Origin: Nannocystis bainbridge
GTDB taxonomy: Bacteria > Myxococcota_A > Polyangia > Nannocystales > Nannocystaceae
Assembly (NCBI RefSeq): GCF_028368995.1
Contig: NZ_JAQNDL010000003.1
Coordinates: 2,272,001 to 2,336,000 of the forward strand
Direction of reading: 5' to 3'
DNA: 64,000 bases
The notes under the pieces were generated by a model. That model had not been told where the DNA came from. It saw only the letters and a program-made list of their open reading frames with translations, and did no database searches. This document shows positions 43,135 to 43,495 of the stretch, piece after piece (within the stretch, counting starts at the first letter, position 1; every line of letters starts with the position of its first letter). The translations under genes were made by a program, and so were the position numbers.

Positions 43135-43495
43135 CACGAGGTGAGCCCGACGCGGCGAAGCCTCCAGAACTTCGGGGAGGCCGAGGGTCCCTGGGGCTTC
43201 GAGCCCGGTAGCGAGTGTGGTCCCCCGAAGTTCGATCTCGATTTTTCTTGGATGATTGTGGGGCTGCGGACTCAAATCGGCCCCACCGCTGCCGGGTTCG
43301 TAAGCTGTCGTACCGCCGTTTCTTCCTTCGCAGGGCGAGACTTCTCGGAGGACTTCGAGAGGCCGTGGGTCCCTGGGGCAGCGAGCCCGCGCGTGAGACG
43401 AGGCCCCGAAGTTCGAGTTTGACCTCAAGAGCCCGGACAACTGCATGAGCGTCAGCCAGCTCGAATCCTACAAGGGTGGGCGGTAGGTCAAGCGA
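43135..43495 (+). ncRNA. Bridge RNA with two target-binding loops and one donor-binding loop (ends approximate)
   Basis: TBL1 43167-43233, TBL2 43350-43414, DBL 43419-43491; each is an outer stem, two guide segments and an inner hairpin. Confidence 0.85.

Follow-up and report, generated by a model that had tools for sequence, protein, structure and literature searches.

Two target-binding loop modules in the bridge-RNA region of a Nannocystis IS110-family element, of which the loop distal to the donor loop matches the insertion sites

A 1401-bp IS110-family element of a soil myxobacterium (Nannocystis) carries, upstream of its recombinase gene, two complete modules of the target-binding loop type (TBL1 and TBL2) followed by a single donor-binding loop (DBL). 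In every natural bridge RNA characterised, a single target loop is combined with a single donor loop. The reading that we prefer, with a probability of roughly 0.55, is that this is an active bridge-recombinase element in which TBL1 chooses the insertion sites and TBL2 is a redundant paralogue under relaxed constraint. An earlier note on the window (the whole stretch of 64,000 nucleotides that was analysed) had proposed a natively dual-specificity recombinase. The IS110-type bridge-RNA locus, its two TBL-like modules and its one donor loop were confirmed, and the support found for dual specificity is weak.

The host genome comprises 11 Mb on five contigs, and its closest named relative among the loci compared is Nannocystis radixulma. 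The element occupies positions 43122–44522 of the window on the + strand, starting with TGTATG and ending with CAACTG. Three copies with ~100% identity are present on three contigs of genome G000, and their flanks diverge exactly at 43122 and 44522, which defines the element boundaries. Logan contigs from four soil-metagenome runs were aligned to the element region, and one contig, from run X3, joins 43119 to 44523, skipping 1403 bases (1401 + 2). Hence, segment 43122–44522 is a real insertion, and the empty site CGGGCCC-CT-CGCT, previously rebuilt on paper, is real as well. The extent first given for the element required correction at the left end, which is one base longer. The left target half (7 nt) with the CT core lies at 43113–43121 (+), as defined by the empty-site joint and by the flanks of the three copies, which differ up to this point, and the CT core with the right target half (4 nt, CGCT) lies at 44523–44528 (+), as defined by the aligned flanks and the empty-site contig. 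The core itself (43120–43121 and 44523–44524) flanks the element on both sides in all eight copies for which both ends are available, and long terminal inverted repeats are lacking.

The only long open reading frame of the element (43535–44506, +) encodes a bridge recombinase of 323 amino acids. It includes an N-terminal DEDD RuvC-like domain (DEDD_Tnp_IS110, PF01548, 7.5e-23) and a C-terminal Tnp domain with the catalytic serine (Transposase_20, PF02371, 8.1e-18). Residues 3–313 match the ISCro4 chain (E 7.6e-33) and residues 4–313 the IS621 chain (E 1.6e-32), and the GID, E, DxxD and SG motif positions are retained in the alignment to ISCro4.

The 413 nt that precede the reading frame are non-coding and include two homologous stem-loops with guide-like internal loops, then one donor loop, as had been described. 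TBL1 (43167–43233, +) is made up of a left guide (43184–43192), an apical hairpin (43193–43206) and a right guide (43210–43215); TBL2 (43350–43414, +) has its left guide at 43366–43374 and its right guide at 43392–43397. The spacer between them (43234–43349, +) is variable among variants of the element and contains a variant-specific hairpin (43258–43286). A covariance model and folding of the region had been suggested as checks on the two loops. The covariance model, R1, with a hand-set structure of 78 positions, was built on the clade's homologous loops (those of the window, of five copies in genome G038, of single-loop relatives and of two metagenome contigs), and both loops match it over all 78 positions, with 75.5 bits for TBL1 and 76.6 bits for TBL2. 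Covariation in the modelled structure is strong: in the alignment fitted to the model, 94.9% of the pair cells are paired, as compared with 72.3% in shuffles, 14 of the 17 pairs have changes on both sides, and the covariation score is 0.544 as compared with 0.171 for shuffled alignments and at most 0.082 with slid partners; this alignment leans towards the model, and the margin is large. Folded locally, TBL1 gave z = -3.54 (0 of 200 shuffles as good) and TBL2 z = -1.81 (9 of 200). The minimum-energy fold of the whole left end did not recover the loops (z = -0.85) and is uninformative at 412 nt; the local folds were therefore used instead. An Rfam search revealed no relevant family, the lone match being a chance microRNA (E = 0.18).

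In the window, TBL1 and TBL2 are identical at 46 of 66 positions (70%, alignment A1). Inspection by eye indicated that, in TBL2 of the window lineage, the right guide is separated from the closing helix by one additional base, and that the C present in every other TBL of this clade at the IS621-type handshake position is missing; the handshake register was inferred from PMC11208158, and the absence of the C is taken as a hint only. In variant B, two mismatches fall within the closing stem of TBL2.

The DBL (43419–43491, +) was read from the sequence and diverges by 4–7% among variants. Its left donor guide (~43437–43443) repeats the last 7 nt of the right end, and its right donor guide (~43469–43474) is the complement of the core together with the first four bases of the left end. 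A promoter formed at the circle junction has been described for IS110 elements (PMC11208160). Joining the ends of the window element would bring together a -35-like hexamer (44503–44508, +), which overlaps the recombinase stop codon, and a -10-like hexamer (43124–43129, +); the resulting pattern TTGACG-18-TATGTT spans the right end, core and left end and is a consensus match only. The start of the -35 hexamer is retained in the right ends of relatives. This pattern fits an IS110 junction promoter, and a transcript starting there would include loop 1. A promoter scan of the linear region 43000–44700 gave no promoter-like sites, and none of the sequencing runs recorded as RNA contained the stretch.

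The register of the guides is fixed by the relation between guides and flanks in relatives. In the single-TBL relatives for which the left-end junction is available (L005, L096, L099, L100, L104, L106, L108 and L114), the left flank and core recur on the 5′ side of the internal loop, and in L097, L099, L100 and L105 the core and right flank recur, as their reverse complement, on the 3′ side. In this register, the right guide of loop 1 is the exact reverse complement of 44523–44528 (6/6), and its left guide matches the left flank and core at 7 of 9 positions, with a possible U:G pair at one of the two differences; both matches had been pointed out before. The flanks of this copy fit loop 1 and not loop 2, in agreement with the earlier proposal that it was inserted using the loop farthest from the donor loop.

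The same comparison was extended to ten copies, eight of which have both flanks, the fit of each loop being judged by eye. The flanks are better fitted by loop 1 in six of the eight (L001, L003, L090, L092, L093 and L105), L085 is a tie, and L002 is better fitted by loop 2. The sample is small, and since L090 and L092 share most of the right flank, independence does not hold for all ten copies. In L001, L003 and L085, the right flank matches loop 1 exactly and mismatches loop 2; the left flank of L085 fits loop 2. Further, the first base of the TBL1 right guide, adenine in variants A and B and cytosine in variant C and L105, covaries with the fourth base of the right flank in seven of the eight copies (A-T in 3/4, C-G in 4/4). 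The corresponding base of TBL2 is cytosine in every variant and fits five of the eight.

The left guides of the two loops have changed to different degrees. That of TBL1 is invariant across variants A, B and C and L105/L107. That of TBL2 departs from the observed targets at position 4 (variant C) and at position 2 (L105/L107), and its core C is changed (43373 C>T) in contigs of three of the four metagenome runs. No copy was found at the sites predicted by the altered TBL2 left guides of variant C, L105/L107 and the metagenomic variant.

These data suggest a scheme in which the bridge-RNA region gained its second complete TBL module when part of the left end was duplicated long ago. A single transcript from the circle-junction promoter would then comprise TBL1, the spacer, TBL2 and the DBL, and TBL1, the 5′ loop far from the DBL, would serve as the main guide. 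Either TBL could in principle be loaded by the recombinase dimer. The guides of TBL2 would overlap the TBL1 target, with the same left half and a CGCG-type right half, rather than specify a separate target class; TBL2 may still be loaded and would give at most occasional insertions at near-cognate, CGCG-type sites. In the IS621 synaptic complex, two separate RNA molecules supply the target loop and the donor loop, and the linker is disordered (PMC11208158). Hence, a target loop distant from the DBL can work, which fits loop 1 as the loop that matches the insertions.

The divergence of the segments was measured pairwise among variants A, B and C. TBL1 is the most conserved non-coding segment (3.0–6.0%), followed by the donor loop (4.3–7.1%); TBL2 diverges by 9.2% in all three pairs and evolves 1.5–3 times faster than TBL1. 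The values are 13.7–20.3% for the 4-fold sites of the recombinase gene and 8.7–28.3%, with up to 24 gap columns, for the spacer, the highest being those of the window against variants B and C (27–28% substitutions and 23–24 gap columns). In these two deeper comparisons, TBL2 diverges less than the spacer (6/65 vs 25/93, p = 0.008; 6/65 vs 26/92, p = 0.004) and marginally less than the 4-fold sites (p = 0.08 and 0.05); in the B–C pair, it is indistinguishable from the spacer and from the 4-fold sites (p = 0.39 and 1). The spacer is partly deleted in L094, and one metagenome contig has 85 unlike letters in its place, between loop regions that both still align. There is no clear sign that TBL2 is dead: its model score is as high as that of TBL1, and it has no indels in variants A, B and C beside a gapped spacer. 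A further point counts against relaxed constraint on TBL2, namely that L105 and L107 keep two intact TBLs while the sequence between them decays. Comparison of L105 with L107 was considered as a neutral yardstick and rejected; their left ends are otherwise ~98% identical, and ~15 of the 22 differences, counted before the two records part, are clustered in a ~28-nt patch of donor-loop remnant, which gives no simple clock.

The main alternative is that both loops are used. In its broad form, that of a natural two-guide system whose layout has arisen at least twice and is kept by selection in myxobacterial IS110 elements attacking the same repeat-borne target, we consider it rather unlikely; if it were true, one transcript would offer two alternative target specifications to one donor loop. 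Unlikely to a slightly greater degree is true dual specificity, with both TBLs loaded and used, CGCT sites being reached via loop 1 and CGCG or CACG sites via loop 2. Both loops are full-length, well-folding TBLs, two TBLs are retained in two lineages, and TBL2 is free of indels and diverges less than the spacer. Moreover, with TBL and DBL as separate molecules, as in IS621 (PMC11208158), the position of a loop in the RNA should not matter. The strongest single case is L002, which is located at a CGCG site and matches loop 2 in 9/9 positions of the left guide and 5/6 of the right guide plus a possible U:G pair, with one mismatch to loop 1 on each side. However, L002 is the only one of the eight copies that favours loop 2. 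No insertion was found in the CT-CACG class assigned to loop 2, and the one perfect-core CACG site in the genome is empty. In relatives, the right guide of loop 2 is of the CGCG class, and the CACG reading therefore rests on a single transition. The two loops of variant C specify the same right half and do not define two classes there. The faster evolution of TBL2 and the mismatch of its altered left guides to all observed targets also argue against a second specificity. A genome census found the 8-nt left half plus core 81 times, with empty target-like sites of the types CGCT (1), CGCG (2), CACG (1) and CGCC (5, three of these in a repeat); such sites are too few for the census to separate the models.

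An extra TBL, be it TBL2 or TBL1, might instead be retained for a role other than the choice of a second target, such as a higher dose of TBL–recombinase complex, help in excision, or a TBL-only RNA acting in direct transfer as in CazIS110-1; we regard this as improbable. In CazIS110-1, a TBL-only RNA is reported to exceed the full bridge RNA ~10-fold in abundance and to support one transfer step (bioRxiv 10.1101/2025.10.25.684509). The left guide core common to both loops would suit such a role, as would the U-rich stretch at 43242–43249 that follows TBL1. This stretch and the hairpin 43258–43286 had suggested release of loop 1 as a separate RNA. That proposal, for which the TBL-only RNA of CazIS110-1 is a precedent, found no support: a terminator scan of 43000–44700 gave two terminator-like sites (44559 and 44018), neither of them near loop 1, a weak or atypical terminator being possible there, and the hairpin is not conserved, being missing in the sister variants B and C. 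The sequence does not distinguish another role from simple redundancy. Finally, that loop 2 is the working TBL and loop 1 a relic is very improbable, since its position next to the DBL, as in single-TBL relatives, and the fit of L002 and of the L085 left flank are outweighed by the right flanks of L001, L003 and L085, by the covariation of the loop 1 right guide with the targets and by the conservation of loop 1.

The two-loop layout is rare. A search of 100 loci with model R1 gave 66 matches in 56 sources. Two full-length matches are present in 10 of these sources, all from two element lineages, and the other 46 have one each. The first is the window lineage, with three copies in G000 and five in G038, i.e. 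eight copies in two Nannocystis genomes; the G038 copies include one 727-bp internally deleted copy and one truncated copy. The second is represented by metagenome contigs L105 and L107, which have the same target. In a family-wide search of 73 genomes, nine have R1 matches (6 in G000, 10 in G038 and 1 in each of seven genomes), and a DNA search with the left end gave full-length matches only in G000 and G038.

In the recombinase tree, the group of the window element, L004 and L090 is sister to a group of L105 and then five single-loop elements, the support for this nine-row clade being 100/99, and the two-loop state requires two changes either way. Between the two-loop lineages, the identity is 70% for the TBL1 pair, 66% for the TBL2 pair and 68–69% for the cross pairs. 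In the absence of an orthology signal, two independent duplications seem more likely than a single gain followed by loss. The two loops of L105 and of L107 are 89–91% alike, as compared with 70% in the window. A context motif before TBL2 was considered as a shared derived character and dropped, as it also occurs in the single-TBL elements L114 and L098.

In most respects, the window element resembles the IS621/IS110 group as described (PMC11208160, PMC11208158). The recombinase combines the DEDD RuvC-like and Tnp domains, the left end has a non-coding RNA region with guides in internal loops, the left guide, with the CT core counted in, is 9 nt long, the right guide complements core and flank, and the donor loop matches the element ends; a circle-junction promoter may likewise be present, the pattern being a consensus match only. 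Unlike IS621, the window element has two complete TBL modules 116 nt apart where the canonical number is one. It also departs from the canonical layout, in which one TBL lies directly before the donor loop, in that the TBL that fits the insertions does not adjoin the DBL, and its right guide seems to read four flank bases plus the core. The separation of a target loop from the donor loop is shared with CazIS110-1. There, however, the TBL that acts apart is a shortened transcript from an element with one TBL, as reported in the preprint, whereas the second TBL of the window element is DNA-encoded.

In the main texts of the literature consulted, no bridge RNA with two target loops was found; supplements may contain some. 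The same applies to the main text of Durrant 2024 (PMC11208160). Section 2.4 of a 2026 preprint with a non-coding atlas, covering a survey of 32,190 bridge RNAs, describes no two-target-loop case.

Bridge recombinases are under development as programmable genome-writing tools. The window element indicates that a target loop need not adjoin the donor loop, as the distal loop matches the insertions, and that mobility is not abolished by additional guide modules in cis. With an active loop 2, the element would offer a precedent in nature for multiplexed targeting by a single RNA; with an inactive one, it would be a dated example of the decay of a redundant guide.

The two-loop layout probably arose by partial duplication of the left end, as judged by analogy with other elements. 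In L105/L107, the stretch that separates the two TBLs can still be recognised as half a donor loop (the 5′ half) and a second left end in decay. In the window, the spacer was compared with the start of the left end, with the donor loop plus the region before the reading frame, and with the right-end tail, and no homology above shuffles was found (234, 492 and 98 of 500 shuffles, respectively, gave local alignments as good). A nested-insertion origin of the window layout therefore rests on analogy with L105/L107 and with the composite elements L009, L010 and L044.

These composites came to light when the 600 nt upstream of each of 79 related recombinase genes were scanned for self-similarity; strong direct repeats with 98–100% identity were found in L009, L010 and L044, all from Gemmatimonadales MAGs, i.e. 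from another phylum. The Gemmatimonadales MAG that contains L009 and L010 also contains two simple copies, L007 and L008. In L009 and L010, 60 nt of a left end, cut off exactly where the left-guide segment plus CT ends, precede a complete element. In L044, the partial left end is 87 nt long and breaks off just behind the right-guide segment. All three composites are flanked on the right by ordinary host target sequence, and as L009 and L010 are at different loci, the composite is mobile as one piece. With the window element they have in common that a partial left-end copy precedes a full element and that the whole is mobile as a unit. The difference is one of age and completeness: these duplications are fresh and incomplete, with no second full TBL match to model R1, whereas the second TBL of the window element is old and complete. 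Partial self-duplication of the left end is probably a route to new guide modules that are able to diverge later.

Half-match events and tandem duplication of partial IS110 modules, and one locus with several donor-binding loops, have been described in a preprint (bioRxiv 10.64898/2026.08.14.744561); the origin proposed here is in line with these. As partial tandem duplication and multiple donor loops are already in print, the mechanism of origin is known. As at the loci described there, non-coding repeat units build up beside the recombinase gene, giving more than one guide loop per locus, and half-match events at the element's own sequences are a further common trait. That work required at least 95% identity between repeats and describes multiple donor loops, whereas the window has an old duplicate of a whole TBL with ~70% identity. 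The terms 'TBL' and 'target-binding' are absent from the main text of that preprint. The window loops, with 70% identity and an unrelated 116-nt spacer, fall outside that preprint's definition of recent tandem expansion (adjacent same-strand units of at least 50 bp with at least 95% identity), and the repeats of L009, L010 and L044 fall within it (at least 50 bp, at least 95% identity). The window-type duplicate of the TBL has been carried through at least eight transposed copies. Weak repeats of 21–46 nt were also observed in L025, L030 and L034 in the self-similarity scan.

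In three of the Gemmatimonadales IS110 relatives (L009, L010 and L044), the full element is preceded by a partial copy of the left end, located at positions 1238–1298 in both L009 and L010 and at 1212–1299 in L044. These copies are 60 or 87 nt long and 98–100% identical, and their 3′ limit lies exactly at, or just past, the guide-coding segments. The whole composites are flanked by ordinary host targets, which are at different loci, and therefore each composite has transposed as a unit. L007, from the same metagenome-assembled genome as L009 and L010, has 3 nt deleted within the left-guide segment of the target loop (~1390–1400), as compared with its sister copies L008–L010.

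Differences concentrated in a short segment were observed between L105 and L107, the metagenome contigs that represent the second lineage with two target loops. Their left ends are roughly 98% identical outside one patch of ~28 nt, about 100–135 nt past the left end, which includes about 15 of the 22 differences counted before the two records part. The patch corresponds to the leftover left-donor-guide part of a first donor loop. Its divergence could be due to independent decay or to patchy recombination, or a stray donor guide may have been selected against.

In the window, the spacer between the two target loops includes a strong hairpin of 9 bp (43258–43286), which was found only in the window's variant of the element; variants B and C have a gap of 23–24 columns at this position.

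The window's genome (G000) and a second Nannocystis genome (G038) have in common a repeat of about 120 bp that lies between genes, and several element insertions occur at the same point within it. Repeat sites in G000 are at C1:~1956722(+), C4:~156665(+), C4:~597949(−) and C2:~2976497(−), and the repeat also makes up flanks of element copies L003, L093 and L094. CGCC follows the CT core on the right in three empty repeat copies (those seen in G000), and CGCG in one; the fourth base of CGCC is matched by neither loop 1 nor loop 2.

L093/L065 (contig C7 of G038) is a 727-bp derivative formed by internal deletion. It retains intact ends, the two target loops and the donor loop, but only the final ~135 codons of the recombinase gene, to which these parts are fused; such a copy is probably non-autonomous and MITE-like. 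Lone target-loop remnants (L102, L109, L115 and L117), with no adjacent intact recombinase gene, are present in other genomes of the Nannocystaceae and in metagenome contigs; they resemble related elements that have decayed.
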